From Pseudarthrobacter oxydans (GTDB lineage Bacteria; Actinomycetota; Actinomycetes; Actinomycetales; Micrococcaceae): a DNA stretch of 32,000 nt. The translations under genes and the position numbers were made by a program. This document shows, piece after piece, positions 13,673 through 30,297 of the stretch (positions within the stretch are counted from its first letter, which is position 1; every line of letters starts with the position of its first letter). The stretch spans positions 189,547 to 221,546 of the forward strand of contig NZ_JAUSSN010000005.1 of NCBI RefSeq assembly GCF_030812335.1, read 5' to 3'. The notes under the pieces were generated by a model. That model was not told the DNA's origin. It saw nothing but the letters and a program-made list of their open reading frames with translations, and made no database searches.

Positions 13673-14449
13673 TCACCGTCCGCCGTTTTCCCGGTGCCGC
13701 GGTTCTGCGCTCTCCCCGTAGGGGACCACGACGGTCCGGCGCGCTGTGCCGCCGTCGTCATAGGGCAGGGTCCTCACCGGAACGCCGTAGAGCTCCGTGA
13801 GTGAGGTGTCCGAGAGCAGCTCTTCCGCGGGGCCGGTCACTGTTCCGCTCCGGCTCAGGAGAACAGCGCTGTCGGCCAGGTACAGGGCGTGGTCCGGGTG
13901 GTGGGTGCTCAGGAGCAGGGCCATGCCGTCGGCCATCAACTCGCGCAGGAGTGACAGGACCCGCACCTGGTTCTTGAGATCGAGCCCGGTGGCAGGCTCG
14001 TCCAGCACCAGGACGGGACAGCCCGCGGCGATGGCCCGGGCTATCAGAATGAGTTGCTGCTCGCCGCCGCTGAGGGTAGGAAACCGCCGGTTGCGCAGTC
14101 CGGGTACGCCGACCCTGTCTATCGCGTCCAGGGCGGCGGCCCGGTCCCTGGCCCCAGGTGTCCGGAAGACCCCGACCTGCCGGGCCCGCCCCATCAGGAC
14201 CATGTCCAGGGCCGTGTACCCGAACGCGCTGCCGCGGGCCTGCGGCACGTACCCGGCACCGTCGGCGCGGTGGACCGTGCCCGCCGCCGGCGCCAGCAGC
14301 CCGGCCGCGCAGCGGACCAGCGTGGTTTTGCCGCTGCCGTTCGGACCCAGCACCGCGGTGGCCGTGCCTTGCGGTACCCGGAAGCTGACGTCCCGGAAGA
14401 CCCAGTCCTGCCGGGCGTAGCCGAATCCCACACCGTCCAGCTCAAGCAC
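13673..14449 (-). CDS. Chelate-type (FecE/BtuD-class) ABC transporter ATP-binding protein
   Basis: Walker A GPNGSGKTT, signature LSGGEQQ, Walker B VLVLDEP. The start is uncertain. GTG 14449 (M-LELDGVGFGY...) overlaps the permease stop by 8 nt. The alternatives are GTG 14467 and GTG 14524. Confidence 0.85.
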   Translation of the reverse strand: MLELDGVGFGYARQDWVFRDVSFRVPQGTATAVLGPNGSGKTTLVRCAAGLLAPAAGTVHRADGAGYVPQARGSAFGYTALDMVLMGRARQVGVFRTPGARDRAAALDAIDRVGVPGLRNRRFPTLSGGEQQLILIARAIAAGCPVLVLDEPATGLDLKNQVRVLSLLRELMADGMALLLSTHHPDHALYLADSAVLLSRSGTVTGPAEELLSDTSLTELYGVPVRTLPYDDGGTARRTVVVPYGESAEPRHRENGGR

Positions 14450-15548
14450 TTTCCCAGATCCTGTCACGGTTCCGGCGCAGCAGCAGGAAGAAAACGGGGG
14501 CGCCGATAAGGGCAGTGAGGACACCCAACGGAATTTCCCCGGCGGTAAGGGTGCGGGCCACGGTGTCGACCAGGATGATGTAGGCGCCGCCGAGAAGGAA
14601 GGACACCGGCAGGAGTACCCGATGGTCCGGGCCCACCCACATCCGCGCCAGATGCGGCACTACCAGGCCCACCCAGCTGACCGCCCCGCTGACTGCCACG
14701 GCGCCGGCGACAATCAGTGCCACCGCCACCAGCACCACCCAGCGCAGGGGGCGCGGTTTGACGCCCAGGGCGGCGGCATCCTCGTCGCCCAGTGAGAGCA
14801 CGTTGATGCGCCAGCGCAGCAATAGGAGCACTGCGGTGCCGCCCAATACAGGGACCAGCGCGACGGCGACCTTGGCGTACGTCGCGGTGGACAAGCTGCC
14901 AAGCAGCCAGAAAACGATGGCTGGCAGAGTGGTGTTGGGGTCCGCGAGGTAGGTCACCAGCGCCACCAAGGCTGAAAAGAACGAACCCGTAACGACACCG
15001 CCGAGCACGATCATCAGCATCGAGGAGCCGCCGCGGCCCGATGTGATCAGGATCAGCATTACGAGGGCTGCCATGCCGAAGAAGAAAGAACCCGCGACCA
15101 GCATGAACGGCCCCAGCCCGAGCAGGAGGGCCAGCGCTCCGCCGAACGAGGCCCCCGCGGATACCCCGATGATCTCCGGGCTGACCAGGGGGTTCCGGAA
15201 GATGGCCTGCAGGGCGGCACCGCCGATCGCCAGTCCGCCGCCCACCAGCAGCCCAAGCAGGATCCGGGGAAGCCGCACGAGCAGGACGACGTTCTGCTCG
15301 GTCTCGCTGGCTTCGAGCGGGAAGGGCACGATCTGTGCGGCGAGAATTTGGACGACGTGCCACACCGGCACGTGGAACCTGCCGAGCGCCAGCGCGAGCA
15401 GTCCGGCCGCGGTCAGTACGACGGCGGCGAGGGAAACGGGCCCCAGAACGGCAAGTGTCCGGCCGCGTACTCCCGGCCCGGGCCGGTGGGCGGTCCGGCC
15501 GGCCCGCGGGCCACGGCGCTTCAGCCGCGCTGGACTGGCCTCATCCAG
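14442..15548 (-). CDS. FecCD-family ABC transporter permease (iron/cobalamin/metal-chelate class)
   Basis: Highly hydrophobic, about 9-10 TM segments, typical FecCD C-terminus ...GEIPLGVLTALIGAPVFFLLLRR. ATG 15548 overlaps the SBP stop by 8 nt (ATGCTGGATGA) and is preferred over the track start at 15656. Confidence 0.85.
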   Translation of the reverse strand: MDEASPARLKRRGPRAGRTAHRPGPGVRGRTLAVLGPVSLAAVVLTAAGLLALALGRFHVPVWHVVQILAAQIVPFPLEASETEQNVVLLVRLPRILLGLLVGGGLAIGGAALQAIFRNPLVSPEIIGVSAGASFGGALALLLGLGPFMLVAGSFFFGMAALVMLILITSGRGGSSMLMIVLGGVVTGSFFSALVALVTYLADPNTTLPAIVFWLLGSLSTATYAKVAVALVPVLGGTAVLLLLRWRINVLSLGDEDAAALGVKPRPLRWVVLVAVALIVAGAVAVSGAVSWVGLVVPHLARMWVGPDHRVLLPVSFLLGGAYIILVDTVARTLTAGEIPLGVLTALIGAPVFFLLLRRNRDRIWESA

Positions 15549-16695
15549 CATTGAACTGTTGGTAATTGGCTGAACCGCTGTTCTCCGTGACCCACAGAAT
15601 CCGGTCCAGGGCGTCCTCCGAGGGCTCCTGGCCATAAAGGAACTGGAAGTATTCACGAACTTTGCCGCGCAGCGCTGACCGTTCCTGGGGAAAAGCGACT
15701 GCCGTGAGCCAGTGCCACATGAGCGGTGATTCCTGCCCTGGGGGGTCCCAGCGGTAGCCGCCGAGGGGAACCTTGTAGACGCGCCGCGAGCGGACAGCGG
15801 AAATGGTCTGCCACACCGGGTTCGAATAGATGTCCTGGGGCATGGCCTGGTCGAAATTGCCCAGCAGGATGACCTCGGGATCCCATCTCAGGACCTGCTC
15901 CACGTCCAGGCCCACCATGCCCGAACCGGTCAACGGGTCCTGGCCGGTGGCGGGGTTGGTGCCGCCGACAAGTTTGATGTAGAAGTCGTTGTACGTATCG
16001 GCCGCCGCGGCTTTGAGCCCGCCGGTGAACCGGTTGAAGTAGAGAATGCTGGGCCCCTCGGAGCCGCGGCCAGCCGCAAGTGACGAGATTTCTTCGAGTT
16101 CCTTGTCGCTGCGGGCCTTGATTTCGGTGGCCCGCTCGGGTTTGCCAAGCATGGCGGCGAACATCGTCACCCAGGCGTCCACGTCCTCCTGTCTGCCGGT
16201 ATTTTTCAGGCCGATCACCGTCAGCCCGGCGTTCTCGAGCGGCTCGATCAGTTGGGCGTCCGACCACTGGATCACCACGTCGGGGTTCAGGGCGCGCACG
16301 CTCTCCACGTTAGGAGTGAAGTCCTGCGTCGCAATGTCGTGGGGCAGTTCCAGCGCCTGCGGAAACATGGTTCCCATGATGCCGTCACGCATCGCGACCC
16401 AGGACGCGTTATGCATGGCACCCAGATGTTCGGCACTGCGGTCGACGGCGACCAGCAGCGACGCTGCCGGCATGGGTATGGTCACTACCCTGGTGACCGG
16501 CCTGGTGAAGGTGACTGTCTTGCCGCGCTGGTCCGTGATGCTGATGCGGTCAGTTGCCGCGGAACCGGTCCCGCCGGCGGCGGGCGAGGCTGCGGGGGAG
16601 AGGCCGGATGCTCCGCACCCGGTGAGCAGGGCTGCGGATCCTCCCGCCATCAACGCCTGAAGCACCGTGCGGCGGGTTGGATCGTCGACTCGCAT
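15541..16695 (-). CDS. Periplasmic-binding-protein class III (Peripla_BP_2, FecB/BtuF/CeuE-like) substrate-binding lipoprotein
   Basis: 384 aa from ATG 16695: MRVDDPTRRTVLQALMAGGSAALLTGC-GASG (twin-Arg plus lipobox). The body is typical of chelate-binding SBPs (...DVVIQWSD..., ...DPEVILLGNF...). The upstream 300 codons of track ORF 15541..17607 are antisense to the DUF6390-like gene and are rejected. Confidence 0.85.
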   Translation of the reverse strand: MRVDDPTRRTVLQALMAGGSAALLTGCGASGLSPAASPAAGGTGSAATDRISITDQRGKTVTFTRPVTRVVTIPMPAASLLVAVDRSAEHLGAMHNASWVAMRDGIMGTMFPQALELPHDIATQDFTPNVESVRALNPDVVIQWSDAQLIEPLENAGLTVIGLKNTGRQEDVDAWVTMFAAMLGKPERATEIKARSDKELEEISSLAAGRGSEGPSILYFNRFTGGLKAAAADTYNDFYIKLVGGTNPATGQDPLTGSGMVGLDVEQVLRWDPEVILLGNFDQAMPQDIYSNPVWQTISAVRSRRVYKVPLGGYRWDPPGQESPLMWHWLTAVAFPQERSALRGKVREYFQFLYGQEPSEDALDRILWVTENSGSANYQQFNAG

Positions 16696-16733
16696 GGTCT
16701 GACCCCCTGAGCGTAGGTTCTTCACAGGATCGC

Positions 16734-16758
16734 CCCGTTGACCAAGGGTGTCAACGGG
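16734..16758. promoter_or_regulatory. Perfect 9-bp inverted repeat in the ABC / DUF6390-like divergent promoter region (candidate operator)
   Basis: CCCGTTGAC-caagggt-GTCAACGGG. It contains TTGAC(-35-like) hexamers in both orientations. It lies 39 nt upstream of the SBP ATG and 79 nt upstream of the DUF6390-like ATG. Confidence 0.35.
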
Positions 16759-16836
16759 CCCGCGGTGCCGGGCCCCTTGTCGGGGTTCGGGGCCGGTGCT
16801 ACTTTCAGAGGACCTTGTGCAGAAGGTGGCCAGATC

Positions 16837-17610
16837 ATGATTCTTGACGGTGCCCAGTTGTTTGTCCGCTACGCCTACCCGCCCAATTCGAGGGGCAGCT
16901 GCGGGCCTCCCGACAGTGATGCGTTGTTGCATTACGGCCAGTCCGGTGTGACGGACCAAGGCCTCCGTGAACTGGCAAAAGGCTTCGCCGGGGCGTGGCC
17001 GTACCTGGAGCTGATTGCGGCCTCCACGGGAATCCGCGATCCCCTCGATTACCGCGTGGTGGAAGCCTACTGGGTGGGCAACAGCCTCCTGGACTCCGTC
17101 GGAATAACCAACATCGGCAACTCCATGGAGGACCGGTTCCGGGCCCGCACGGGACGGCAATTCCCGCACCTGGCGGAAGGGGTCCTGGCCGGCGGGGTTC
17201 CCCACCACAGTTTCCACGTCTTCGAGATCTACCCTTGGCTGGGCCTGCTCCACGATGACCGCCGCCACGCCACCGCCTTGAGTGTGCTCGACCGCTGCCG
17301 CATCCGTTGGGGCGAGGTGCTGGCGATCACCGGCGACGAGGCCGTGGTCCGGTCCCGGCCACTGGTGTGGGATGGAACCTCGCTGGCCGTCGGCGAATCC
17401 GTGGTCGAGTCCGCGAAATACGCGGTGAACGGATCCGGGTTCGTGGCCGGGCTGGCCGTGGGGGACGCGGTGTCGCTCCACTGGGATTGGGTCTGTGACC
17501 GGCTGTCCCCGCGTCAGCTGGAGCGGCTGAAGCACTTCACTGCGCGGCACCTGCGGATTGCCAACAGCGGCGTCGAACACCGCGGCGCCGCGATCGCGCT
17601 GGAACACTAG
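16837..17610 (+). CDS. Conserved hypothetical protein (DUF6390-like by recollection) with a HypC/HupF-like C-terminal module
   Basis: 257 aa from ATG 16837, preceded by GAAGGTGG at 7-nt spacing. The track start at 16738 lies inside the operator-like palindrome. MILDGAQLFVRYAYPPNSRGSCGPPDSDALL... The C-terminal part CRIRWGEVLAITGDEAVV...VGDAVSLHWDWVCDRLSPRQLER aligns by eye with HypC of this window (CLGIPGQVVELLEG...PGTWVLIHMGFALERVDPAGAER). Confidence 0.7.
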   Translation: MILDGAQLFVRYAYPPNSRGSCGPPDSDALLHYGQSGVTDQGLRELAKGFAGAWPYLELIAASTGIRDPLDYRVVEAYWVGNSLLDSVGITNIGNSMEDRFRARTGRQFPHLAEGVLAGGVPHHSFHVFEIYPWLGLLHDDRRHATALSVLDRCRIRWGEVLAITGDEAVVRSRPLVWDGTSLAVGESVVESAKYAVNGSGFVAGLAVGDAVSLHWDWVCDRLSPRQLERLKHFTARHLRIANSGVEHRGAAIALEH

Positions 17611-17621: not shown

Positions 17622-17960
17622 CTAGGGGGACTGCGGCGCGGCACTGTCCGGGTCCTCCGGAGGCTCGACCCCGGTGGAGTCGCGGGGCGAGGACCCGCCC
17701 GAGGGCCGACCGGCCGGCGTCGCGTCTGTTCCGGTTTCTCTCCGCCCGGGCTCCAAACCCTCCTGCTTAACCACGTCCTCCCCCCGCCGTGTGGTGCTCT
17801 CGCCGACGCCCTCGGGCGCCCTTGCCGCGTCTTCGGGGGTCTCGTCGGACCCTGGCTGTGCGGGTTCCTTGAGCGGCGGCTCGCTGCCAAAGGCGCGGGC
17901 TGTGCCGGGGGAGGTTCCCTCGGCGGGATCCTTGGCCTCGGGCGAATTAGTCGGTGACAT
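17622..17960 (-). CDS. Hypothetical acidic, Pro/Glu/Gly-rich, probably intrinsically disordered protein at the tail of the hydrogenase operon
   Basis: 112 aa from ATG 17960, preceded by AAGGAG at 6-nt spacing. MSPTNSPEAKDPAEGTSPGT... The strand is ambiguous. ORF 17674..17979 (+) shares the same wobble position and has equal GC3. I prefer the minus strand because of the SD, the operon context, and the implausible 20% Ser in the + ORF. Confidence 0.45.
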   Translation of the reverse strand: MSPTNSPEAKDPAEGTSPGTARAFGSEPPLKEPAQPGSDETPEDAARAPEGVGESTTRRGEDVVKQEGLEPGRRETGTDATPAGRPSGGSSPRDSTGVEPPEDPDSAAPQSP

Positions 17961-18007
17961 GATGCTCTCCTTCATCTGATTTAGGTGGGGCGCGCTCTTA
18001 GTCTGGG

Positions 18008-18265
18008 CTAGCCGGCGTCGCTGTCGGCGTCCCTGGGCCGGCCCATCAGCTCCAGCCCGCCCATGGCCCGTTCCGCGCCCGCGGGATCCACCCGTTCCAG
18101 GGCGAAGCCCATGTGGATGAGGACCCAGGTGCCCGGCTCCAGCGGCCCCTCATCCAGCAGACCGATGTTGATCTTCCGCCGTACTCCGGCCACGTCCACG
18201 AGGGCCAACTGATTGCCGTAGCCTTCGAGCAGTTCGACGACCTGGCCCGGTATTCCAAGGCACAT
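18008..18265 (-). CDS. hypC: [NiFe]-hydrogenase assembly chaperone HypC/HupF family
   Basis: 85 aa. Diagnostic N-terminus MCLGIPGQVVEL and WVLIHMGFALERVD. Confidence 0.92.
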   Translation of the reverse strand: MCLGIPGQVVELLEGYGNQLALVDVAGVRRKINIGLLDEGPLEPGTWVLIHMGFALERVDPAGAERAMGGLELMGRPRDADSDAG

Positions 18266-18317: not shown

Positions 18318-18884
18318 CTAGACGGGCGTATGCTGCGCGATCAGTTCTTCGACGGCGGCCACGGCCTGCGGTACGGCCGCCGCCACCGGGCCGGTGAGGC
18401 CGATTCCCTCGCTGAGGTCGGCGGGGACGCAGCCGACGACGTAGGTCAGGGGAAGCTCACCGCCGAGCGAGCGGAGCCGCCCCAGCACGGCAACCGGGTC
18501 CATGCCGTGCGGGTCAAGGGACGCGGCGCCGTCGAGGTCTTCCGGGCGCACCCGGAGCACCCGGATGCGTCCCGGTGCCGCCTCCGGGTCCCCGCCGGAG
18601 TCCGCGCCCGGTCCTGTGCCCGAACCCGGGGGCACGGTATCCACCAGCACCAGGACGTCGACGCCGGCCAGCAGATCGTAGGCCAGGTGCATGCCGCGGA
18701 TTCCGTAGTCCACCGCCAGCACGCCGGGCGCCGCCGCGCCTGTGGCCACGGCCAGCCGCCGGGCGACCTCCGGGCCGAACCCGTCGTCGCGCAGGAACAT
18801 GTTCCCCACGCCTGCGACGAGGACGCGGGGTAGGCGATCCGCGGTCCCTGTGGCGGGACCGCCCGGCTGGAATGGTGACGTCAC
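18318..18884 (-). CDS. hupD: Hydrogenase maturation endopeptidase (HupD/HyaD/HybD family)
   Basis: VLVAGVGNMFLRDDGFGPEVARRL...VLVLVDTV...LDPHGMDP... (GxGNxxxxDDGxG, D, H metal ligands). The start is set at GTG 18884, which overlaps the TGA of the 39-aa ORF (GTGA). The longer track ORF (to 19193) is rejected. Confidence 0.85.
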   Translation of the reverse strand: MTSPFQPGGPATGTADRLPRVLVAGVGNMFLRDDGFGPEVARRLAVATGAAAPGVLAVDYGIRGMHLAYDLLAGVDVLVLVDTVPPGSGTGPGADSGGDPEAAPGRIRVLRVRPEDLDGAASLDPHGMDPVAVLGRLRSLGGELPLTYVVGCVPADLSEGIGLTGPVAAAVPQAVAAVEELIAQHTPV

Positions 18885-19000
18885 ATTCGCCGCATTTTCA
18901 GGTAGCGCTGGATATCGGGGACCGACCGAATCCCGGCGTATACGGCCGCCAGTGTCAGCGCCACGAGCAGGCCGACCGTGGCCATTCCTACTGTTTTCAT
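18881..19000 (-). CDS. 39-aa single-pass membrane micro-protein (absent from the ORF track; DUF6893-like by recollection)
   Basis: Hand translation gives MKTVGMATVGLLVALTLAAVYAGIRSVPDIQRYLKMRRM*. ATG 19000-18998 overlaps the TGA of the upstream 461-aa gene (ATGA), and its own TGA overlaps the hupD GTG (GTGA). It has one hydrophobic helix plus a basic C-tail. Confidence 0.6.
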   Translation of the reverse strand: MKTVGMATVGLLVALTLAAVYAGIRSVPDIQRYLKMRRM

Positions 19001-20382
19001 TGCGGGTCTTCCTCTCCATCCTCAAGCGGTTCAAGTTCTTCGGGTGCGTAGTAGAAGGACCGGCCGTAGCCTTCATGGAGGTCCGCGGCAGGGTCCTTTT
19101 CAAGCACCAGGCCCACGTGGGTGCTGCCATCGACGTCGAAGTGCACACTGGTGACCCGCCCGGTCTGCCCGGCGAAGAAGAGGTCCTGCGCATCGGCGCG
19201 CCGGCTCGGGTTCACCCTGACCCGGCTGCCGCGGGCCACCGGAACGCCGTTGATCAGAACGGCATCCAGGGACGGCTGGACGAGGGCTTCGGATTCCGGC
19301 GTCCACCAGGCGGGCGGGTCCCCTCCGCTGCCGGCGGCGCTTCCGCGGATGTCCGGGAATTCCACGGCGTGGGGATTGCGCAGGATCCCGTGCAGCTGCT
19401 GCAGTTCCTCCGGTGACATGGCCTCGCAATGGTCGATGATCGCGGCCGCGCGGGGATCGGTGGCGCGGGCCTCGGATTTTTCTTCCTCGGTCAGGGTCAG
19501 CACCCGCAAGGTGAGGATCTCGTCAATTTCGGTGGAATCATAGAGTGCCACCGGGCTTTCCGGGGCCACCGCGGGGTGGTCGTAGAGAATGATCGGCGAG
19601 ACCAGCAGCACGTCCGTCTGCCCTTCGGGACCGGCGAGGACGGGCCAGCAGCGGTGCTGCGAGCAGTCCGCAACGGCGTCCTGCGCCCATCCTGGCGGGT
19701 CCAGCAGGGAGAGGAAATCCGCGTCCCGCAGGCTGAGGAGCACGTGGGCGCCGATGAAGGACGCGGCGATGGCGTCCTGCCGGTTCCCCGGCTCCGCAGC
19801 GGGCTCCGCGGTGTTGGCGACGGAAACCCGTAACCGCTGGAGGCCGCGGGTCAGGCCGGTGGAGTCCAGCGTGAGTTCCCCGCGGAGCGCGTGGCGGCGC
19901 CGCACCAACCTGCCTGCCGTCCGGCCGGTGCCGTCGCCGAGGTCCTCAATCTCCTCGCTCGCCGGGATCTCCACCGGCAGCTGCAGCGCTTCCCGGGCCA
20001 GCTCCGCCACCGGAAACGGCCCCAGGGTGATCTCCTGTTCCACCGCCTCGTCCCAGCTCAGCCAGCGGGAGGCTCCGATGGTGAGTTCCGCCACCGGGCT
20101 GAAGTTCCCGGCGTCGTCCGCTTTTTCGGCGGTGCGGGTCTGCAACTGCAGGAAGCGCAGGTGGATTTCCACATCCGCGTGCGGTCCGGGACTCAGTAGG
20201 CAGTCGGCGGACATTGCCGGTTCCTCCCCGGCGCCGGCTTCCGCGGCCCCGGGCGGCCCGAGGATTCCAAACTGCCAGCGGGCCTGGTTCTTCTGCGAGG
20301 AAGCCCGGTAGGGGTACAGCAGGTAACCCTCGTAGAGGACGGCGTCGGCGACTGCCCTGGCCAGGCTCAGGCTCATGGTCAT
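18997..20382 (-). CDS. Conserved hypothetical protein of the hydrogenase operon, 461 aa, function unknown
   Basis: From ATG 20382 (ATGA overlap with the upstream stop): MTMSLSLARAVADAVLYEGYLLYPYRASSQKNQARWQFGILGP... with an acidic C-terminus ...YYAPEELEPLEDGEEDPQ. The N-terminal 135 codons of track ORF 18997..20787 are off-frame read-through of the upstream gene. Confidence 0.75.
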   Translation of the reverse strand: MTMSLSLARAVADAVLYEGYLLYPYRASSQKNQARWQFGILGPPGAAEAGAGEEPAMSADCLLSPGPHADVEIHLRFLQLQTRTAEKADDAGNFSPVAELTIGASRWLSWDEAVEQEITLGPFPVAELAREALQLPVEIPASEEIEDLGDGTGRTAGRLVRRRHALRGELTLDSTGLTRGLQRLRVSVANTAEPAAEPGNRQDAIAASFIGAHVLLSLRDADFLSLLDPPGWAQDAVADCSQHRCWPVLAGPEGQTDVLLVSPIILYDHPAVAPESPVALYDSTEIDEILTLRVLTLTEEEKSEARATDPRAAAIIDHCEAMSPEELQQLHGILRNPHAVEFPDIRGSAAGSGGDPPAWWTPESEALVQPSLDAVLINGVPVARGSRVRVNPSRRADAQDLFFAGQTGRVTSVHFDVDGSTHVGLVLEKDPAADLHEGYGRSFYYAPEELEPLEDGEEDPQ

Positions 20383-21035
20383 GGGAGCCGCTCTCCGCCC
20401 ACACCCGTCGCCGCAGCAGACAGCAGGGACTCCACCGTGGCCTCCCAGGACGTCAGTCCGCGCACCGCCTTGTACTGCGACAGGGCGGCCAGAGCATCCC
20501 GGTCCAGCCTGATCCAGCCCGCATTGGGGAAATACTGGTCCATCAGCCGGTGCCACGCCGCCACCGGGAGGCGGTACGAGGCTTCGAGGTGCCACGGGAC
20601 CTGCTCCACCCCGAATCCTGCCGGGCCTTTCGTGAAGACGGTGCCGGAGAACAGCAGCTCCAGCGGGATTTCGCCGTCCCGGAGGGCGTGCAGGTACTTC
20701 GACGCGGCGACGTCGAAGTCGAACGTGCAGGGCAGCGGCAGGTCCGCTTCGGTGCTGTCCGTGAATCCCTGCACCATGGTGCTGCACTGCAGCCAGAGGA
20801 ACGACTTAAGCGTGGTGGGCCAGCGGCCGCGCTCGCCGAACAGGTCCAGGAGCCCGCGTTCCTCCTCGTCCGCATATCCGCGGCGCTGCGGCAGGATCCG
20901 CACCTGGCAGCGCAATGCGATGGCGTGGATGGTGGCGCCGGTGGACTCGGTCAGCCGGAGCCGGGCGGTCAGTTGCGGCGCCGCGGCGTAGGGCTCCGGC
21001 TGGATGTCGACGACGGCGAACGTCAGTTCGGTCAT
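20379..21035 (-). CDS. Conserved hypothetical protein of the hydrogenase operon, 218 aa (DUF6084-like by recollection)
   Basis: From ATG 21035, preceded by GGGAGGA and overlapping the upstream stop (ATGA): MTELTFAVVDIQPEPYAAAPQLTARLRLTESTG... Confidence 0.75.
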   Translation of the reverse strand: MTELTFAVVDIQPEPYAAAPQLTARLRLTESTGATIHAIALRCQVRILPQRRGYADEEERGLLDLFGERGRWPTTLKSFLWLQCSTMVQGFTDSTEADLPLPCTFDFDVAASKYLHALRDGEIPLELLFSGTVFTKGPAGFGVEQVPWHLEASYRLPVAAWHRLMDQYFPNAGWIRLDRDALAALSQYKAVRGLTSWEATVESLLSAAATGVGGERLP

Positions 21036-21742
21036 GGGGATCCTCCCGCCAGGGATTGGCTTTTGTCCTCCGGCGCGGGCCGGCTGCGGCTGTCCAGCCG
21101 GGCGAAAAACGCGGTGAGTTGCTCGCGGGCCTCCTGTCCGCCGTCGAACCCGCGCCAGAGGCGGCGGAGCTGCCCCACGAGTTCGTAGCAGGCGTCCACG
21201 GGGACCAGATGGCAGTCGGCGCGGGATCGGTCCGGTCCGGGGCCGCGGATCAGCAGCGCCTCCGTGTCCGGTGCCGCCAGCGCAAGCGCCGGGTTTTGTG
21301 CCAGCACCGTGGCCCAGGCGCCCAGCGGAAGCTCGGACTCGGTGGCGCCGGCGGGGCCCGGGTAGAAGGCGACGGTCCGGTCCAGTTTGGAACTGTGGAA
21401 GAAGAATGCCAGTCCCACCGGAATTTCCAGCTCGTCCCACTGGCCGGGGCCCAGTTCAAAATCGGGAAAGGACAGGTACCGGTCCGGCACCGAACGGTAG
21501 CGCAGATGCGCCGTGGCGTCAGTGAACAGGAGGTAGCACGGCCGGCACGTGCACATCATGGCATGGCTCTCCAGGTCGACAATGTGCTGATGTTCCTCCG
21601 GAATGGGTTCCCCGCACATCTCGCAGCGCTCGCCGGCGGGCGGCGCGGGTGGGCGGGCCGCGATCCGGCGCAACAGGGTGACCGGCAGCCCGCCGGGGGC
21701 GGTCCGGCCCCGGCCGGTCTCGGTGCTGCCTCCGGGATTCAT
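21032..21742 (-). CDS. Conserved Cys-motif protein of the hydrogenase operon, 236 aa (DUF5947-like by recollection)
   Basis: MNPGGSTETG...GERCEMCGEPIPEEHQHIVDLESHAMMCTCRPCYLLF... (CxxC-19 aa-CxCxxC). ATG 21742 directly abuts the hhyE stop (TGAATG). Confidence 0.75.
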   Translation of the reverse strand: MNPGGSTETGRGRTAPGGLPVTLLRRIAARPPAPPAGERCEMCGEPIPEEHQHIVDLESHAMMCTCRPCYLLFTDATAHLRYRSVPDRYLSFPDFELGPGQWDELEIPVGLAFFFHSSKLDRTVAFYPGPAGATESELPLGAWATVLAQNPALALAAPDTEALLIRGPGPDRSRADCHLVPVDACYELVGQLRRLWRGFDGGQEAREQLTAFFARLDSRSRPAPEDKSQSLAGGSP

Positions 21743-22708
21743 TCAGGCGTCCTGGCCGGAAACCATCGGCACGGCCACGGACATCACGCCGGACCGTACC
21801 AGGAGCGGCAGCGGATCCAGGTGCAGGTTCCGGTCCTCCAGGCAGCTCCCGGCCTGCCGAACGTCGAAATGGGCGCGGCAGGAGGGGCAGCGCAGCAGGC
21901 CGCCGCCCGCGGGTGCCGCGAGGGCACGCTGGAGGGTGGCGCCGGCCATCGACGCCGTGCAGCGCGGGCAGTAGTCGCGGTAGGCGTAGACGTCCTGCCC
22001 GGTCCGGCAGGCGAGCACCGGGTACCCGCCGACAAGGAAGCCGGCGACGTCGCCGGGTTCCAGCCCGGCAATCTCCGGCACGGGCTCCCAGGATCCGGCG
22101 GCATGCTCGTGCCAGCGGCCGGCATCGCCCGGGCCGTGGCCTGCCGCGCCATCGGCCGGGTGGTTCAGCCGGATTAGCAGCGCGTCCACCGGAATCACGG
22201 CCGGAACTGCCGGACGGGATTCCTCCTCGACCACCTCGATGGCCGTGACCTCCGGCGCGGCTGACTCGATCGCCTCCTCGACGGCGAACTTGAGCGTGAC
22301 CGACGACGAGGGGCAGCCCTGGCAGGTGCCGAGCAGCCTCAGCCGCACGACCCCCGCGGGGCTGATGTCCAGGAGTTCCACGTTGCCGCCGTGCGAGCCG
22401 AGGTAGGGACGGACACTGTCCAGCGCGGCAGCCACCCGTGTTTCGACGTCCTGCGGGTGCAGCCCGTGGATCACCAGCAGGCTGGAGACCAGCTCGTCGG
22501 CGGTCAGCGCGTCCAGCGTCCCGCCGTCCAGTTGCCCGCGGTCATCGAGGATTTCCAGGATCCGGGCGAGCCCGGAACCGTAGAGTTCCGTCACCTGGCG
22601 GACCAGTTCCTCGGCGCGCCCGCGGGCCACCGCCCCGCCGGCTCCGAGGGCGTCGAGGAGGCTTTCGATCCGGTCGCCGGCCTGCGGCGGCCGGTCCTCG
22701 CCAGGCAT
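21743..22708 (-). CDS. hhyE: Putative iron-sulfur protein HhyE-type: Nfu/NifU C-terminal domain fused to a Rieske-fold-like domain
   Basis: 321 aa from ATG 22708, 5 nt after the hhyL stop. Nfu module VRPYLGSHGGNVELLDI...LLGTCQGCPSSSVTLKFAVEEAI. C-terminal module ...VLACRTGQDVYAYRDYCPRCTASM...LLRCPSCRAHFDVR. It occupies the same position after the large subunit as the mycobacterial HhyE/HucE genes. Confidence 0.85.
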   Translation of the reverse strand: MPGEDRPPQAGDRIESLLDALGAGGAVARGRAEELVRQVTELYGSGLARILEILDDRGQLDGGTLDALTADELVSSLLVIHGLHPQDVETRVAAALDSVRPYLGSHGGNVELLDISPAGVVRLRLLGTCQGCPSSSVTLKFAVEEAIESAAPEVTAIEVVEEESRPAVPAVIPVDALLIRLNHPADGAAGHGPGDAGRWHEHAAGSWEPVPEIAGLEPGDVAGFLVGGYPVLACRTGQDVYAYRDYCPRCTASMAGATLQRALAAPAGGGLLRCPSCRAHFDVRQAGSCLEDRNLHLDPLPLLVRSGVMSVAVPMVSGQDA

Positions 22709-22713: not shown

Positions 22714-24507
22714 CTATTCGCCGGTCAGTGTCTGGGTGGGGGAGTGCAGCTTCTGCAGGGTCTGGCCGTTGCCCAGATACATATGCACCCCGCAGGGCAG
22801 GCAGGGGTCGAAGCTGCGGACGGTGCGCATGATGTCGATGCCCTTGAAGTGCTCGCGGTCGTTCTCCTCGAAGATCGGCTGCCCCTGGACGGCGTCCTCG
22901 TAGGGGCCGGCGGTTCCGGCGGAGTCCGTGGGGCTGGCGTTCCAGGGGGTCGGCGGGTAGGGATGGTAGTTGGCGATCTTCCCGTCGCGGATCACCATGT
23001 GGTGGGATAGGACGCCCCGCACGGCCTCTGTGAATCCGCAGCTGATGGCTTCGTCCGGAACCTCGAAGCTCTCCCACGTCTTGGTGCGCCCGGCGCGGAT
23101 CTCCTCGAGTGCCTTCTCCGCGAAGTGCAGTGCGGCGGCGGCGGCGTAGGCCTGGAAGTAGGTGCGGGCCCGGTTGCGTTCCAGGGTGTTGCTCCACTGC
23201 GGGATGTTCCACTCGAAGGAAACAGGACCTTTCAGCGCGGTCTTGGGCAGGTTGATCTGGACGCTCCGGCCGGTGGCCTTGATGTAGCCGATGTCCACCA
23301 GGCCGGCGAGCGCCGTCGCCCAGAGGCGGGCCAGCGGGCCGCCGCCGGTGTCCAGTGCCAGGTTGTCCTGGCCGTCAAACCAGCGCGGCGACATCACCCA
23401 GCTGTATTTCTCTGCGAGGTCCCGCTTTTGCGGCCGCGGGTTGGTGTGCTGGTTCCAGGGATGCCGGCGGTCCACGGGATTGCCCAGCGGATCGTGGGTC
23501 ACAAACATTTCCTGGCCTTCCCAGTCCTCATAGTAGGAGGAACCGAGCATGATCCGGATGCCCAGGTTGATCCGCACCAGGTCGGTAGTGACGAGTTTGC
23601 CGTCCACCACAACGCCGGGCGTGACGAACATCTTCCGGCCCCACTCGGTCATGTCCTTGTACTCGAAGTTGCAGTAGTCGGGATCCTGGAGCGAGCCCCA
23701 GCAGCCCAGCAGCGTGCGCCGCAGCCCCACCTGTTCGTAGCCCGGCAGGGCCTCGTAGAAGAAGTCGAACAGGTCGTCATGCATGGGGACGACCTTCTTC
23801 ATGAACTCCACGTAGCGCATGAGCCGGGTGATGTAGTCCGTCATCAGCTGGATGGTGGCAACCGTTCCCACTCCGCCCGGGTAAAGCGTGGACGGGTGAA
23901 CGTGGCGGCCCTCCATGAGGCAGAACATTTCGCGGGTTGCCCGGCTGACCTGCAGCGCCTCGCGGTAGAACTCCCCGGTGAACGGGTTGAGCGACCGCAT
24001 GATGTCGGCGATGGTCCGGTAGCCGTGGTCACCCTCATGCGGTGCACGGGTGTTCTCGGCCTTGGCCAGCACCCCGGGGTTCGTCTCCGAGACCATCTTT
24101 TCGCAGTAGTCGACGCCGACGAGGTTTTCCTGGAAGATGTTGTGGTCGAACATGTACTCGGCGGCTTCGCCGAGGTTCACGATCCATTCGCCGAGGTTTG
24201 GCGGCTTGACGCCGTAGGCCATGTTCTGGGCGTAGCAGGAGCATGTGGCGTGGTTGTCCCCGCAGATCCCGCAGATCCGGCTGGTGATGAAGTGCGCGTC
24301 CCGCGGGTCCTTGCCCTTCATGAAGATGGAGTATCCGCGGAAGATCGAGGAGGTGCTCTTGCACTCCACCACCTGTTTGTTCGCAAAGTCGATCTTGGTG
24401 TAGATGCCGAGGCTGCCGACGATCCTCGTGATGGGGTCCCACGCCATCTCCACCAGATTGTTGTCACCTGTTCCGCTTCCGGAAGGCATTGGAATCGTTG
24501 AGGTCAT
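22714..24507 (-). CDS. hhyL: [NiFe]-hydrogenase large subunit, group 1h (formerly group 5, high-affinity Hhy type)
   Basis: 597 aa. L1 motif TSRICGICGDNHA and L2 motif SFDPCLPCGVH, followed by the 22-aa tail MYLGNGQTLQKLHSPTQTLTGE, which is the protease substrate. ATG 24507 with AGGTGA at 5-nt spacing is preferred over GTG 24516. Confidence 0.97.
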   Translation of the reverse strand: MTSTIPMPSGSGTGDNNLVEMAWDPITRIVGSLGIYTKIDFANKQVVECKSTSSIFRGYSIFMKGKDPRDAHFITSRICGICGDNHATCSCYAQNMAYGVKPPNLGEWIVNLGEAAEYMFDHNIFQENLVGVDYCEKMVSETNPGVLAKAENTRAPHEGDHGYRTIADIMRSLNPFTGEFYREALQVSRATREMFCLMEGRHVHPSTLYPGGVGTVATIQLMTDYITRLMRYVEFMKKVVPMHDDLFDFFYEALPGYEQVGLRRTLLGCWGSLQDPDYCNFEYKDMTEWGRKMFVTPGVVVDGKLVTTDLVRINLGIRIMLGSSYYEDWEGQEMFVTHDPLGNPVDRRHPWNQHTNPRPQKRDLAEKYSWVMSPRWFDGQDNLALDTGGGPLARLWATALAGLVDIGYIKATGRSVQINLPKTALKGPVSFEWNIPQWSNTLERNRARTYFQAYAAAAALHFAEKALEEIRAGRTKTWESFEVPDEAISCGFTEAVRGVLSHHMVIRDGKIANYHPYPPTPWNASPTDSAGTAGPYEDAVQGQPIFEENDREHFKGIDIMRTVRSFDPCLPCGVHMYLGNGQTLQKLHSPTQTLTGE

Positions 24508-24533
24508 GTTCTTCACCTGTCTGGAAGTGGGTG

Positions 24534-25592
24534 CTACCAGGTGCGCCGGGCACCGGTAAGGAGCTCAGTACCGGGCCGGCGCCACTTGGGCTCCTGGTCC
24601 AGGGTGTGGGTGGTGATTCCACGCAGCGCCCTGATGGCCGAACCGTACGGGCGGATGGTGTTCGTTGAGAGCTTTCCGCCGGGAGGCTCATCCATAAAGG
24701 GCATGAACTTGTCCGGGAACCCCGGCATGGTGCAGCCGATGCAGATGCCGCCGACATTCGGGCAGCCGCCGACGCCGTTCATCCAGCCGCGTTTGGGGAC
24801 GTTGCACTTGACCACCGGGCCCCAGCAGCCGAGCTTGACGATGCATTTGGGGGAGCCATACTCGGTGGCGAAGTCACCCTGTTCGTAGTAGCCGGCCCGG
24901 TCACACCCCTCATGAACAGTCTGGCCGAAAAGCCACGTGGGCCGCAGTGCGTCGTCCAGCGGAATCATCGGCGCCTGGCCGGTGGCCTGATAGAGCAGGT
25001 AGGTCATTGTTTCGGAGAGATTGTCCGGCTGGATCGGGCACCCCGGAACGCAGACGATGGGGATCCCCGCCTTGGACTTCCAGTTGTAGCCGAGGTAATC
25101 CGGCACGCCCATGGCCCCGGTGGGGTTTCCCGCCATCGCGTGGATGCCGCCGTAAGTGGCGCAGGTCCCCGCCGCGATGATGGCGGTGGCCTTGGGGGCC
25201 AGGCGGTCGAGCCATTCGCTGGTCGTGATCGGCTGGCCGGTCTCGAGGTCGTTCCCGAATCCGCACCAGTAGCCGCCGGGGGCGTGGAGCTTTTCGTTGG
25301 GGATGGACCCCTCCACCACGAGGACAAACGGCTCCAGTTCGCCGCGGTCCGCCTTGCGGAACCACTCCAGGAAGTCGTCGGCCCCTTCCTGCGGTCCGCA
25401 TTCGAAGTCGATCAGGGGCCAATGCATGGCAATGCGCGGCAGGCCGGGCAGGGCGCCGAGGGCTATCTCCTCGACGCTGGGCTGCGTGGCCGCCGTCAGG
25501 GCCACAGAATCGCCGTCGCAGCTGAGCCCTGCGTTGATCCACAGCACATGGATAAGGGTTTCTTCGGCCTTCAGAGAAGTTTCAGTAGGCAT
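24534..25592 (-). CDS. hhyS: [NiFe]-hydrogenase small subunit, group 1h, without a Tat signal
   Basis: 352 aa. MPTETSLKAEETLIHVLWINAGLSCDGDSVALT... begins directly at the conserved core with no RRxFxK leader. Multiple FeS Cys motifs are present (GTCATYGG, CPIQPD, CIGCTMPGFPD). Confidence 0.95.
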   Translation of the reverse strand: MPTETSLKAEETLIHVLWINAGLSCDGDSVALTAATQPSVEEIALGALPGLPRIAMHWPLIDFECGPQEGADDFLEWFRKADRGELEPFVLVVEGSIPNEKLHAPGGYWCGFGNDLETGQPITTSEWLDRLAPKATAIIAAGTCATYGGIHAMAGNPTGAMGVPDYLGYNWKSKAGIPIVCVPGCPIQPDNLSETMTYLLYQATGQAPMIPLDDALRPTWLFGQTVHEGCDRAGYYEQGDFATEYGSPKCIVKLGCWGPVVKCNVPKRGWMNGVGGCPNVGGICIGCTMPGFPDKFMPFMDEPPGGKLSTNTIRPYGSAIRALRGITTHTLDQEPKWRRPGTELLTGARRTW

Positions 25593-25614: not shown

Positions 25615-26463
25615 TTAGGGGCTCAGTGTGTCCGTCAAAGATCCAGTCAAAGTGGCTGACCGGGAACTGGTTCCGCCGAGCCAGTCATACCAGCCGGCGA
25701 GGCCATCGCCGGTGGTGGCCGAAAGGACCAGGAAATCGGTGCGCGGATTGAGCTGACGGGCCCTGCGCCGGAACCCGTCGACGTCGAAATCAACGTAGGG
25801 GAGCAGATCCGACTTGTTGATGATCACCAGATCGGCTGCCCTGAACATGTGCGGGTATTTCTGCGGCTTGTCATCACCTTCCGTCACGGAAACGACTACT
25901 ACTTTCGCTGCTTCGCCGAGGTCAAACAGGGCGGGGCAGACCAGGTTGCCCACGTTCTCGATGAACACCGTGGACCCGGTTCCGGGATCCAGGGCGTCCA
26001 GCCCCCGCCGGAGCATGTCGGCGTCCAGATGGCAGCCGGCACCGGTGTTGATCTGGACGACGGGCCGTCCCACCGCACGGATGCGGTCCGCGTCCAGGGA
26101 CGTCTCCTGATCGCCCTCGACGACGCCGGCCTGCAACCGCTCGCCCAGGTCGGCGAGGGTGCGGACCAGCAGCGTGGTCTTGCCCGCCCCCGGGGAGCTC
26201 ATCACGTTCAGCGCGCGGATTCCCCGGCCTTCCAGCCAGCCCCGGTTCCTCGCCGCGAGCAGCTCGTTTTTCGCGAGCAGGCTCTGTTCCAGCGGGATGG
26301 TTTCCGGGTTGTGAACGTGCGGGTGCTCGTGGTCCGGACCGTGGTCGTGTGTGTGCCCGTGGGAATGGTCGTGCGGGTGCACGGGCAGCGGTGCGCTTGA
26401 GGATTCCTGCAGTGTGGAAACCCTGACGTTCGTTTCGTCGCCGCATCCGCATGTTGTACACAC
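25615..26463 (-). CDS. hypB: Hydrogenase nickel-incorporation GTPase HypB
   Basis: N-terminal MCTTCGCG high-affinity metal site, His-rich tract HPHDHSHGHTHDHGPDHEHPHVH, and P-loop SSPGAGKTTLL. GTG start with GGAGGTGG upstream. Confidence 0.95.
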   Translation of the reverse strand: MCTTCGCGDETNVRVSTLQESSSAPLPVHPHDHSHGHTHDHGPDHEHPHVHNPETIPLEQSLLAKNELLAARNRGWLEGRGIRALNVMSSPGAGKTTLLVRTLADLGERLQAGVVEGDQETSLDADRIRAVGRPVVQINTGAGCHLDADMLRRGLDALDPGTGSTVFIENVGNLVCPALFDLGEAAKVVVVSVTEGDDKPQKYPHMFRAADLVIINKSDLLPYVDFDVDGFRRRARQLNPRTDFLVLSATTGDGLAGWYDWLGGTSSRSATLTGSLTDTLSP

Positions 26464-26466: not shown

Positions 26467-26796
26467 CTACGCCACCTCCACCGACATCAGCATGAGTTCG
26501 CGGCCGCTGAGGATTTCGACGTCGGCGCTTCCGCAGGGACACAGCAGGATCAGGTCGGCCGGTTCGAACTCGTCGTGGCAGTTTCTGCACCGGGCCAGGC
26601 CGCGCGGTTCGTCGATCATCAACTGGGCGCCGTCCAGAGGGGTGCCCGCGGATGCGACGTCGAAGCAGAAGCGCATTGCATCCGGGAGAACACCGGACAG
26701 GGGGCCCACCTGCACGTTGACCGCAATGACTTTCCGCTCGCCGGTTCGGTCGAGGACGGCTTCAACAAGGCTCTGGGTAATAGAGAGTTCGTGCAT
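26467..26796 (-). CDS. hypA: Hydrogenase nickel insertion protein HypA
   Basis: 109 aa from ATG 26796, preceded by GGAAGGAG. MHELSITQSLVEAVL (MHE nickel site) and zinc motifs CRNCHDEF...CPCGS. The rest of track ORF 26467..27123 is rejected. Confidence 0.92.
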   Translation of the reverse strand: MHELSITQSLVEAVLDRTGERKVIAVNVQVGPLSGVLPDAMRFCFDVASAGTPLDGAQLMIDEPRGLARCRNCHDEFEPADLILLCPCGSADVEILSGRELMLMSVEVA

Positions 26797-26932: not shown

Positions 26933-28066
26933 ATGGAGCAACCGGAGGTTACGCGCCAGGGCCGAATCCGCGGCGCGCGCAGTGCCCTTTCAGGCCGGGA
27001 GTGGGCATCGGTCGGCGGAATGGTCATGTTCGTCGCTTTCCTCCACGTCCTGGGCTGGGGCGTCCTGGCCGGGGTGGCGGACCCGCGAAACGTCCCCGTC
27101 GGTTCCACCGGAGTCTTTGGCATCGGCCTCGGCGTAGCCGCCTACACGCTGGGCCTGCGCCACGCATTCGACGCCGACCACATCGCCGCGATCGACAACA
27201 TCACCCGCAAGCTCCGTGCCGATGGCAAGCGCAGCATGTCCGTGGGTTTCTGGTTTTCGCTGGGCCACTCGAGCATAGTGTTCGGCCTGTGCGCGCTGCT
27301 GGCGGCCGGAATCCGCAGCCTGGCGGACCCGGCCGCCGAGGGAACGTCGGAGCTCCATTCCTTTCTGGGCCTGGTGGGCACCACAGTCTCCGGCGTGTTC
27401 CTGGTGGGCATCGGCGTCCTGAACCTGGTGGTGCTGCGGGGCATTATCCGGTCCGTAGCGCGGATGCGGAAGAGTGAAGAATCCGGGGCAGACCTGGCAG
27501 GGCAGGGGCCCCCGCCGGGTGTGCTGTACCGGGTGTTCGGCCGGGTCACACGGCTGGTGACCCGTCCGTGGCACGTGTACGGCGTCGGACTGCTGTTCGG
27601 GCTCGGCTTCGACACCGCCACCGAGGTCAGCCTCCTGATTCTGGCCGGCGGCGCCGCGGCTTCCGCACTGCCCTGGTACGCGATCATGACGCTGCCCGTG
27701 ATCTTTGCCGCGGGGATGAGCCTGCTGGACTCCCTGGACGGGTGCCTCATGAACTTCGCCTACGGCTGGGCCGTGTCCCGGCCGGTCCGCCGGATCTATT
27801 ACAACATCGTCATAACGGCGCTGTCGGTGGCCGTGGCACTGGGCATCGGCTCCATCGAACTGGTGTCAATCCTCGTGGAACGGGCCGGGATCAGCACGGG
27901 CCCGCTGTCCGCAATCGGCGGCATCGACCTGGACTCGGTGGGGTACACGGTTGTCGCCCTGTTCCTGGGCACCTGGGTGCTGGCCATGGGGGTGTGGCGG
28001 TTCGGCCATATTGAGGAACGCTGGACGGCTCCGGTGAGGAACCCCGACCCCGGCACTGGTGGCTAG
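26933..28066 (+). CDS. hoxN: Nickel/cobalt permease, NiCoT family (HoxN/HupN/NixA)
   Basis: 377 aa from ATG 26933. NiCoT signature LRHAFDADHIAAIDN in TM2, plus FLGLVGT..., LFGLGFDTATE. Divergent from hypA. Confidence 0.92.
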   Translation: MEQPEVTRQGRIRGARSALSGREWASVGGMVMFVAFLHVLGWGVLAGVADPRNVPVGSTGVFGIGLGVAAYTLGLRHAFDADHIAAIDNITRKLRADGKRSMSVGFWFSLGHSSIVFGLCALLAAGIRSLADPAAEGTSELHSFLGLVGTTVSGVFLVGIGVLNLVVLRGIIRSVARMRKSEESGADLAGQGPPPGVLYRVFGRVTRLVTRPWHVYGVGLLFGLGFDTATEVSLLILAGGAAASALPWYAIMTLPVIFAAGMSLLDSLDGCLMNFAYGWAVSRPVRRIYYNIVITALSVAVALGIGSIELVSILVERAGISTGPLSAIGGIDLDSVGYTVVALFLGTWVLAMGVWRFGHIEERWTAPVRNPDPGTGG

Positions 28067-28102
28067 CGGGCCCGGTCGTACCGCTTCATCTAGGGTTGTT
28101 CC

Positions 28103-28408
28103 ATGCCGTCGTTCCAGACCAGACTGAAGATCACCGGGCTCAAGCCGGGCAACCCGCCGGAGTCCGTGATGGCCGCTGCCGTCGAAGCCCTGGAGACGCG
28201 GCACCACGTCGAGGCGAACCAGCTGGACCTGGCCGGCGGGGTTCCGCAACTGAACCTGCGCTTCCTGGTCGAGCCCACCTCGTACAGCAGCGAGAACCGC
28301 CAGGCGCTCGAGTCGGCCGCGATGATGCGCGACGCCGTCGAACGCGTGGCGGTGACCGGCCATCTGATGGTGCTCCGCCGCAACCGCGGCCGCTGGGCGC
28401 CCGTCTAG
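28103..28408 (+). CDS. Hypothetical protein, 101 aa, downstream of the nickel permease
   Basis: Normal amino-acid composition and high GC3 (MPSFQTRLKITGLKPGNPPESVMAAAVEALETRHHVEANQLDL...). The antisense ORF 28090..28383 is Ser/Arg/Trp-rich. There is no good SD and I recognise no homolog. Confidence 0.5.
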   Translation: MPSFQTRLKITGLKPGNPPESVMAAAVEALETRHHVEANQLDLAGGVPQLNLRFLVEPTSYSSENRQALESAAMMRDAVERVAVTGHLMVLRRNRGRWAPV

Positions 28409-28424
28409 TCGGGTTCCGCCCGCT

Positions 28425-29069
28425 TCAGAAGTCGAGTTCCTCGTCGGGTCCGTCCACGACGGGGGAGCGGTTGCCGCGCCTGCGCGTGACGATCACGCCC
28501 AGGATGACTCCGACCAGGACCCCGACGCCGACGCCGATCAGGGAGCTCGCCCAGAACGGCAGCCCGGTGGCTGCGCCGGTGACATAGCCGAGACTGACGG
28601 ACCAGACGGCCCAGAGGAGGCCGCCGAGGGCCGCGCAGAGGCTGAATCCGCGGGTGGAGACGTTGGCGATGCCGGCGGCGGCCGTTGTCGCCAGCCGTCC
28701 GCCCGGGATGAAGCGGATTCCGATGATCGCCCCGTAGGTGGTGGACCGGCCGGCTTTCGCGATGGCGGTGTGGACGGCCTGATGGAACGACCGGCCCCAC
28801 CGCCAGCGGTCCAGGGTATGGCTCAGGCGCCGCTTGAAGAGCTGGAACACCAGGATGTCGCCCAGCCAGGACGCTGCGGCGGCCAGGAAAACCACCAGGA
28901 AGGCGTTGGCGCGCCCGACGGCGGACAGGGCGCCGCCGGTGATGACCACCATTTCGGAGGGGAGGGGCGGGAAAAGGGCATCGCCCATAACAACCGGGAT
29001 GATCCAGAAATAGATCGCGTCCCCCCAGCCGTCTGCGCTGCCGAAGTCCATGGGCACAAGGTACCTCAT
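28425..29069 (-). CDS. DedA/VTT-domain (SNARE-associated) membrane protein
   Basis: ...FPPLPSEMVVITGGAL... followed by several TM segments and RFIPGGR, typical of the DedA family. The start is ambiguous between ATG 29069 and ATG 29051. Confidence 0.78.
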   Translation of the reverse strand: MRYLVPMDFGSADGWGDAIYFWIIPVVMGDALFPPLPSEMVVITGGALSAVGRANAFLVVFLAAAASWLGDILVFQLFKRRLSHTLDRWRWGRSFHQAVHTAIAKAGRSTTYGAIIGIRFIPGGRLATTAAAGIANVSTRGFSLCAALGGLLWAVWSVSLGYVTGAATGLPFWASSLIGVGVGVLVGVILGVIVTRRRGNRSPVVDGPDEELDF

Positions 29070-29119
29070 TTCCGGGCTGCCGCCCGTCCGTGGCGTCGGG
29101 CTTAGCTTCCTGCGGCCGC

Positions 29120-30291: not shown

Positions 30292-30297
30292 GGAAGC

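Follow-up and report, generated by a model that had tools for sequence, protein, structure and literature searches.

Group 1h [NiFe] hydrogenases, which are thought to account for a large share of the atmospheric H2 that soils take up biologically, have been known since 2014 as membrane-bound enzymes linked to respiration; no subunit with a membrane segment has been described for them. In the gene pairs hyaC-hyaD and hoxZ-hoxM, the anchor gene stands just before the gene of the specific protease. The Hhy enzyme of Mycolicibacterium smegmatis is confined to the membrane fraction and resists 5% cholate, although no transmembrane region is predicted in it (bioRxiv 10.1101/769216), and its operon carries no cytochrome b gene (PMC6883350). 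The Hyd-1h enzyme of Methylacidiphilum was described as membrane-associated 'without membrane anchor' (PMC7174314), and a paper of July 2026 still gives the anchoring subunit of group 1h as unidentified. In Huc, a group 2a hydrogenase, the subunit HucM (about 189 amino acids, aa) assembles as a tetramer into a tube of amphipathic coiled coils; its contact with the membrane is peripheral, and cholate releases it (PMC10017518). Here we analyse a window of 32,000 nucleotides (nt) from Pseudarthrobacter oxydans (the whole stretch from 189,547 to 221,546 of contig NZ_JAUSSN010000005.1), which encodes a group 1h operon and, within it, a 39-aa micro-protein of the family DUF6893. We propose this protein as a candidate membrane anchor of the enzyme.

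The micro-protein gene follows the gene of a 461-aa conserved hypothetical protein and precedes that of a maturation endopeptidase of the HupD/HycI type (Table 1). Its open reading frame (ORF) translates as MKTVGMATVGLLVALTLAAVYAGIRSVPDIQRYLKMRRM and contains neither histidine nor cysteine. As the initial annotation had pointed out, it overlaps both neighbours. Its ATG (19000-18998) and the TGA of the 461-aa gene (18999-18997) have the tetranucleotide ATGA in common. The preceding gene is this conserved hypothetical one and not that of a hydrogenase subunit; the ATG of the 461-aa gene itself overlaps the stop codon of the DUF6084 gene in the same manner. At the other end, the TGA of the micro-ORF (18883-18881) overlaps a GTG (18884-18882, giving GTGA) that is in frame with the protease. 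This GTG is the best protease start, and the only plausible one, because there is no further in-frame ATG, GTG or TTG before the conserved VLVAGVGN motif and because a related locus (L004) has an equivalent GTG directly followed by TVLVAGVGN. The arrangement makes it probable that the 3' end of the micro-ORF is translationally coupled to the protease gene. A Shine-Dalgarno sequence, GGAGAGGAAG, lies 7-10 nt 5' of the ATG, within the 3' end of the upstream gene.

We used the 461-aa neighbour as a query to fetch 80 related genome loci. The loci come from Micrococcaceae, Cryobacterium, Nocardioidaceae, Kribbellaceae, Modestobacter, Frankiales, Pseudonocardiales, Streptomyces and many Mycobacterium; the nearest relatives of the window's locus are Arthrobacter genomes. 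Conservation at the same operon position in other genomes, the check that had been proposed initially, is complete: a 39-codon homologue stands directly 3' of the 461-aa gene, on the same strand, in 80 of the 80 loci. It is intact in 79, and the frameshifted copy belongs to a metagenome-assembled genome (MAG). An overlap between the start codon and the upstream stop region occurs in 76 of the 79 loci (as ATGA in 47, as TGATG in 9 and in a longer form in 20), and a purine-rich block, GGAAAGGA or GAGAGGAG, is found 6-10 nt before the start in all 80. Six residues (G5, P28, D29, R32, Y33 and M39) never change among the 79 distinct coding sequences. In the codons of the first five, the third position shows a variability of 0.7-1.7 bits; for M39, encoded by ATG, no synonymous codon exists. 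The uncorrected ratio of non-synonymous to synonymous change (pN/pS) is 0.33 in the C-terminal tail and 0.73 in the hydrophobic helix.

The micro-protein also matches the Pfam family PF21833 (DUF6893) with 49.0 bits (E = 6.1e-13; gathering threshold 24.6), its residues 9-39 aligning with positions 2-32 of the 32 in the profile. An ORF of this size could have arisen by chance in a G+C-rich intergenic gap, as DNA of 65-70% G+C is rich in random 39-codon ORFs, and we counted 139 ORFs of at least 30 aa in 14 kb. This explanation is refuted by the Pfam score at twice the cut-off, the presence in 80 of 80 syntenic loci and the wobble at third positions; the conserved Shine-Dalgarno sequence also speaks against it, and we give it next to no probability. 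Judged by these sequence comparisons, the micro-ORF is a genuine conserved gene under purifying selection at the codon level.

The name DUF6893, which the initial annotation had suggested, was therefore right, given a match above the threshold, but the gene is not 'untracked', as was also claimed. The family counts 1,800 clusters at 90% identity and 172 at 50% identity, and the name 'DUF6893 family small protein' already stands on NCBI homologues from Arthrobacter, Streptomyces, Mycolicibacterium and Nocardioidaceae. The micro-protein is a full-length member, 85-97% identical to the Arthrobacter entries and with the same length, motif and operon context. The claim that no function had been described agrees with our literature search, which found no paper containing 'DUF6893'. 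What is new here is the tie of an already catalogued family to group 1h clusters, the existence of two positional forms, the reach of the family into Proteobacteria, including plasmid pHG1, and the likeness of its tail, with an invariant final Met, to a docking motif.

To the 80 genome loci we added three plasmid loci and 14 metagenomic places for nine diverse family members. Every recovered context contains the set of HhyL, NifU, DUF5947, DUF6084, a protein of about 450 aa and HycI, and each group 1h cluster inspected has a DUF6893 homologue. We take the family to be a dedicated, apparently universal accessory component of group 1h clusters, i.e. of the Hhy-type, high-affinity, cytoplasm-facing enzymes. 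It occurs in two forms: a long one of 39 aa, upstream of the protease gene, and a short one of 32-34 aa, mostly downstream of it. The short forms lack the MxxxG N-terminus, and a 41-aa member (P0075) occupies the same downstream position. They usually lie directly 3' of the protease gene (L084-L086, L089-L092, L095 and L096) and are sometimes the last gene of the operon; overlaps of 4 nt with the protease gene are frequent among them, with overlapping coordinates in L086, L092, L095 and L096. One short form precedes the protease gene (L087), and another stands between hypB and a yceI-like gene. Two actinobacterial loci (L053 and L061) carry two paralogues each, one of 39 aa after the 461-aa gene and one of 33 aa directly upstream of hypC in the divergent maturation operon (384..485 on the minus strand in L053). 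In L086, a 74-aa ORF (1394..1618) is built from a tandem pair of DUF6893 units, of which the second is degenerate and has L in place of the final M.

Two plasmids extend the family to Proteobacteria. On pHG1 of Cupriavidus necator H16, a 33-aa ORF preceded by the Shine-Dalgarno sequence AGGAGG lies between the maturation protease gene of the actinobacterial-type hydrogenase (AH) and hypF. It is absent from the gene table of PLSDB, whose tables are incomplete. The 32-aa ORF of Methylocystis parvus pMpar-2 (ending in FNFRDIVRYIKITMM) scores weakly but is syntenic, flanked by the genes of the protease and of HypC. It is preceded by a Shine-Dalgarno sequence and retains the pattern D..RY....M followed by the stop codon.

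These contexts bear on whether the peptide itself matters. The gene might be only a cis-acting device, an upstream ORF or arrest peptide that sets the translation of the protease and whose product is irrelevant. The overlaps with the genes at both ends would fit, and the 15 conserved C-terminal residues with their invariant last codon recall TnaC and MifM. However, leader and arrest peptides such as TnaC, SecM and MifM act in cis from upstream, whereas the DUF6893 gene is downstream of the protease gene or last in the operon in L084, L089-L092, L095 and L096. Since the gene can follow the protease gene or stand last, its product has to work in trans and is more than a hupD upstream ORF. Moreover, the hydrophobic character of residues 5-25 is kept though their sequence varies, and M39 is kept whatever the stop codon or the downstream sequence. 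A cis-acting role is hence very improbable, and both this explanation and that of a chance ORF are essentially excluded. We also ruled out that the terminal Met is imposed by the overlapping GTG start, since 29 of 81 sequences end with TAG or TAA.

The micro-protein is the sole core product of the operon with a hydrophobic stretch of transmembrane grade, as the initial annotation had it: its maximal Kyte-Doolittle average over 19 residues is 2.09, and those of the other core products are all at most 1.57. An AlphaFold2 (AF2) model from a 64-sequence alignment, with a mean predicted local distance difference test (pLDDT) score of 94.7, has a helix at residues 2-25, a break at S26 and a second helix at 27-38. 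Family members share about 32-39 aa, one hydrophobic helix and a C-terminal PD[IV]xRYLKxRxM, and the conserved motif of the tail reads S26-x-P28-D29-x-x-R32-Y33-L34-x-x-R37-x-M39. Among 132 diverse members, S26 is conserved in 113, P28 in 122, D29 in 129, R32 in 129, Y33 in 131, L34 in 103, R37 in 125 and M39 in all 132, and small residues are kept at helix positions 5, 8, 16, 19 and 23. The net charge is about +0.6 in the N-terminal flank and about +3.8 in the C-terminal one. By the positive-inside rule, this asymmetry predicts an N-out/C-in topology, with the conserved tail on the cytoplasmic side, where Hhy is. We infer membrane insertion and topology from these sequence features.

The initial annotation had described one transmembrane helix followed by an amphipathic basic tail. 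The helix and the basic character of the tail (+4) stand, but the tail lacks amphipathicity: 3,745 of 5,000 shuffled sequences (75%) reach its hydrophobic moment of 0.24. The moment of the helix is 0.11. Conserved tail residues occupy both faces of the second helix, with I30, Y33, L34 and R37 on one side and R32, M36 and M39 on the other. Since the tail is conserved on both faces without being amphipathic, a docking motif is favoured over a helix lying at the membrane interface. S26-x-P28-D29 would then be a helix N-cap, and the rest of the tail would be enclosed by a partner rather than spread on the lipid surface. A search of the PDB with the peptide profile returned only noise (E > 0.5) and no chain that resembles or contains it; 5AA5 is the only solved structure of group 1h.

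Size and architecture also suit a modulator of some housekeeping membrane complex that would be co-expressed with Hhy and act like CydX, AcrZ or KdpF, with no binding to the hydrogenase itself; its target might be a terminal oxidase, a protein that handles quinones, or a transporter of nickel or iron. Small residues along the transmembrane helix suggest helix-helix packing, a transporter lies downstream in the window and HoxN is near the C. necator gene, and genes of leaderless YceI proteins adjoin some short forms. Yet the neighbouring transporters vary or are missing across lineages where the peptide is constant, and the cytoplasmic tail is conserved more than the membrane helix, as the pN/pS values show. 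We regard such a modulator as improbable. The resemblance to CydX, PetG/L/M/N, PsbF and KdpF nevertheless holds in a general sense: like them, the DUF6893 micro-protein has fewer than 50 aa and one transmembrane helix, is encoded in the operon of a complex, and is easily missed by annotation and proteomics. It has no sequence relation to any of them, and its most conserved part is the tail with the invariant C-terminal Met, not the helix.

Further parallels are with hydrogenase anchors. Classical membrane-bound group 1 hydrogenases are attached by a C-terminal transmembrane helix of the small subunit together with cytochrome b (HyaA/HyaC, HoxK/HoxZ). Here too a single helix would keep a [NiFe] hydrogenase at the membrane, and the position of the long form before the specific protease gene mirrors hyaC-hyaD and hoxZ-hoxM. 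In contrast to those anchors, DUF6893 is a separate 39-aa polypeptide with one helix, without histidine haem ligands and without sequence similarity to HyaC, HoxZ or HupC. It forms no four-helix cytochrome b of their type, and DUF6893 is its sole Pfam match. In addition, Hhy faces the cytoplasm and is not exported by the twin-arginine translocation (Tat) system, in contrast to the HyaC/HoxZ systems. The small subunit HhyS opens straight with its mature domain and lacks both a Tat leader and a transmembrane segment, in line with the initial description of a Tat-less enzyme. The likeness to HucM is that of a small extra subunit, encoded in the operon, that would bring a soluble-looking oxidiser of atmospheric H2 to the membrane and to menaquinone. 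HucM-type subunits have about 190 aa, with an N-terminal scaffold and a C-terminal amphipathic coiled-coil tube, whereas DUF6893 has 39 aa, low moments in helix and tail, and no homology to HucM; its hydrophobic helix would fit the cholate resistance of Hhy.

The explanation we tentatively favour, with somewhat less than even confidence and from sequence-based prediction, is that the micro-protein is a bitopic N-out/C-in anchor that holds Hhy at the membrane. The stop/start overlaps would ensure translation in fixed proportion to the neighbouring genes. The peptide would be inserted post-translationally, with residues ~5-25 spanning the membrane and the stripe of small residues (G5, T8, A16, A19 and G23) packing against another helix. 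The S-x-P-D cap would break the helix at the inner surface of the membrane, and the invariant basic tail (D29, R32, Y33, L34, R37 and the C-terminal M39) would dock in a groove of a cytoplasmic protein of the Hhy system. The soluble hydrogenase, or its last assembly intermediate, would thereby be held at the inner face of the membrane, near the quinone pool. Such a transmembrane helix would explain why the binding of Hhy resists cholate. A role as quinone-site partner, which had also been suggested, finds no support in the present results. A wider reading makes DUF6893 the integral-membrane subunit that has been missing from group 1h hydrogenases as a whole: the helix would anchor the enzyme, probably in oligomeric form, and the invariant tail with its terminal Met would plug into the Hhy complex. 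We consider this somewhat less likely.

Several results weigh against an anchor. The presence of the peptide alone does not predict membrane binding. We tried this correlation and it fails, because homologues are found in C. necator pHG1 and, more weakly, in Methylocystis. The C. necator enzyme, which is the source of the structure 5AA5, was purified from the cytoplasm (PMC7174314). This counter-point is not decisive, since the purification followed homologous expression (PMC7174314). A mirror-tree analysis with partial correlation, comparing the peptide with six operon proteins over 51 loci, gave no clear partner (HhyL 0.36, DUF6084 0.34, HhyE 0.30, the 461-aa protein 0.28, HupD 0.17 and DUF5947 0.04). 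Seemingly natural fusions of the peptide with the 461-aa protein (P0021, P0084 and others) turned out to be frameshift artefacts, as both contigs that we inspected are long-read assemblies with genes fragmented throughout. Finally, many lineages couple the gene to that of the maturation protease or place it beside hypA, hypB or hypC, which fits a role in assembly equally well or better.

The main rival is accordingly a transient assembly or maturation factor that would work with the protease or the Hyp proteins and be absent from the finished enzyme. In most contexts the gene adjoins that of HycI/HupD, on either side and often with 4-nt overlaps, including the GTGA of the window; the second short copies upstream of hypC and the member next to hypB point the same way. 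Against this, the protease gene lies ~480-690 nt past the peptide, i.e. at least one gene further on, in the loci of the Nocardioidaceae and Modestobacter type, and the partial correlation with HupD is among the weakest. Adjacency is also uninformative, since specific proteases normally accompany structural genes, and no known step of [NiFe] maturation needs a membrane. We consider an assembly factor rather unlikely. The preferred anchor, in turn, would require a docking partner. The AF2 model of the upstream, coupled 461-aa protein (pLDDT 63) has a confident beta-rich core at residues ~56-224 and, at the C-terminus, an SH3-like domain whose match to the cytochrome b6f subunit PetP (2n5u, 7r0w_V) is the sole meaningful fold match; the protein has no Pfam or NCBIfam match and no sequence relative in the PDB. 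This SH3-like domain is a tempting partner for the micro-protein, which is speculation from a model.

If DUF6893 were the missing subunit, the oxidation of atmospheric H2 would be coupled to the quinone pool of the membrane. The difference in affinity, which is high in membrane-bound enzymes but not in the one isolated from the C. necator cytoplasm, would also be explained. The micro-protein would largely escape tryptic proteomics: beyond short fragments, it yields only two peptides, one hydrophobic and about 25 residues long, the other of 7 residues, both identifiable only with the ORF in the search database. DUF6893 is thus a directly testable candidate for the membrane anchor of group 1h.

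On the minus strand, the gene order around the micro-ORF is hypA, hypB, hhyS, hhyL, the NifU-Rieske gene, the DUF5947 and DUF6084 genes, the 461-aa gene, the micro-ORF, hupD, hypC, a 117-aa ORF and a transporter with a periplasmic binding protein (PBP), FecCD permease and ATP-binding cassette (ABC) ATPase (Table 1). HhyL matches chain C of PDB 5AA5 (HofG, from the group 1h hydrogenase of Ralstonia eutropha called 'actinobacterial-type') with 1,070 bits and carries the C-terminal extension DPCLPCGVH|MYLG. We did not identify hypD, hypE or hypF in the examined parts of the window, the long minus-strand ORFs tested upstream of hypA (27142..31858) have no Pfam match, and an Rfam scan of the window gave no match.

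Table 1. Coordinates of the DUF6893 genes and of the features around the micro-ORF (positions in the window unless another locus is given).
Feature	Coordinates	Strand	Evidence or remark
DUF6893 micro-protein gene	18881..19000	minus	39 aa + TGA; translation, Pfam, synteny, codon selection, AF2 model
Shine-Dalgarno GGAGAGGAAG of the micro-protein	19008..19017	minus	sequence; within 3' end of upstream gene
hypA	26467..26796	minus	PF01155; upstream of hhyS
hypB	25615..26463	minus	PF02492; upstream of hhyS
HhyS gene, group 1h small subunit	24534..25592	minus	PF01058 + PF14720, N-terminus, hydropathy
HhyL gene, group 1h [NiFe]-hydrogenase large subunit	22714..24516	minus	PF00374; PDB 5AA5 chain C
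NifU-Rieske gene, HhyE-like putative iron-sulfur protein	21743..22708	minus	PF01106 + PF13806; start mapped
DUF5947 protein gene	21032..21742	minus	PF19372, E 4e-74
DUF6084 protein gene	20379..21035	minus	PF19562, E 6e-95; start mapped
461-aa conserved hypothetical gene	18997..20382	minus	homologues in all group 1h loci
HupD/HycI-type maturation endopeptidase gene	18318..18884	minus	TIGR00072 E 4e-28, PF01750; GTG start
hypC	18008..18265	minus	PF01455, E 3e-22
117-aa ORF	17622..17975	minus	
PBP / FecCD permease / ABC ATPase transporter	13673..17607	minus	past hypC and 117-aa ORF
33-aa short form MKGFLKYLVLPALVVALLANIKDIRRYIRIRSM, Cupriavidus necator H16 pHG1	L081 8999..9100, ~66753..66854 of NC_005241.1	plus	E 2e-6 (profile including short forms)
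32-aa ORF MGLFEIILGLLILALIAFNFRDIVRYIKITMM, Methylocystis parvus pMpar-2	L083 8747..8845	plus	weak score, E 3.8; absent from PLSDB gene table

Some minor observations concern the neighbouring genes. YceI-family genes (PF04264) without a signal peptide adjoin some short forms (L087 1070..1576, L089 5066..5578, L090, L091 and the contig of P0134). Members of this family bind isoprenoid lipids, and by analogy a leaderless YceI could be a cytoplasmic quinone carrier. We dropped this link because neither the window nor the 80 actinobacterial loci (L001-L080) have a YceI gene. The transporter downstream of the operon may supply metal to the hydrogenase; within it, the Pfam match of a 688-aa ORF (15541..17607) is confined to the C-terminal third, and this ORF may comprise more than one gene. 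A conserved, acidic and probably disordered protein of about 70 aa (beginning with MSETPGAHLEEEPQEERGAPGSRDTGSDEP) is encoded directly after DUF6893 in nine loci (L040, L044, L046, L048, L053, L057, L061, L065 and L070). These are the loci of the Nocardioidaceae and Modestobacter type, in which the protease gene stands further on, and the 117-aa ORF of the window is similar in composition.

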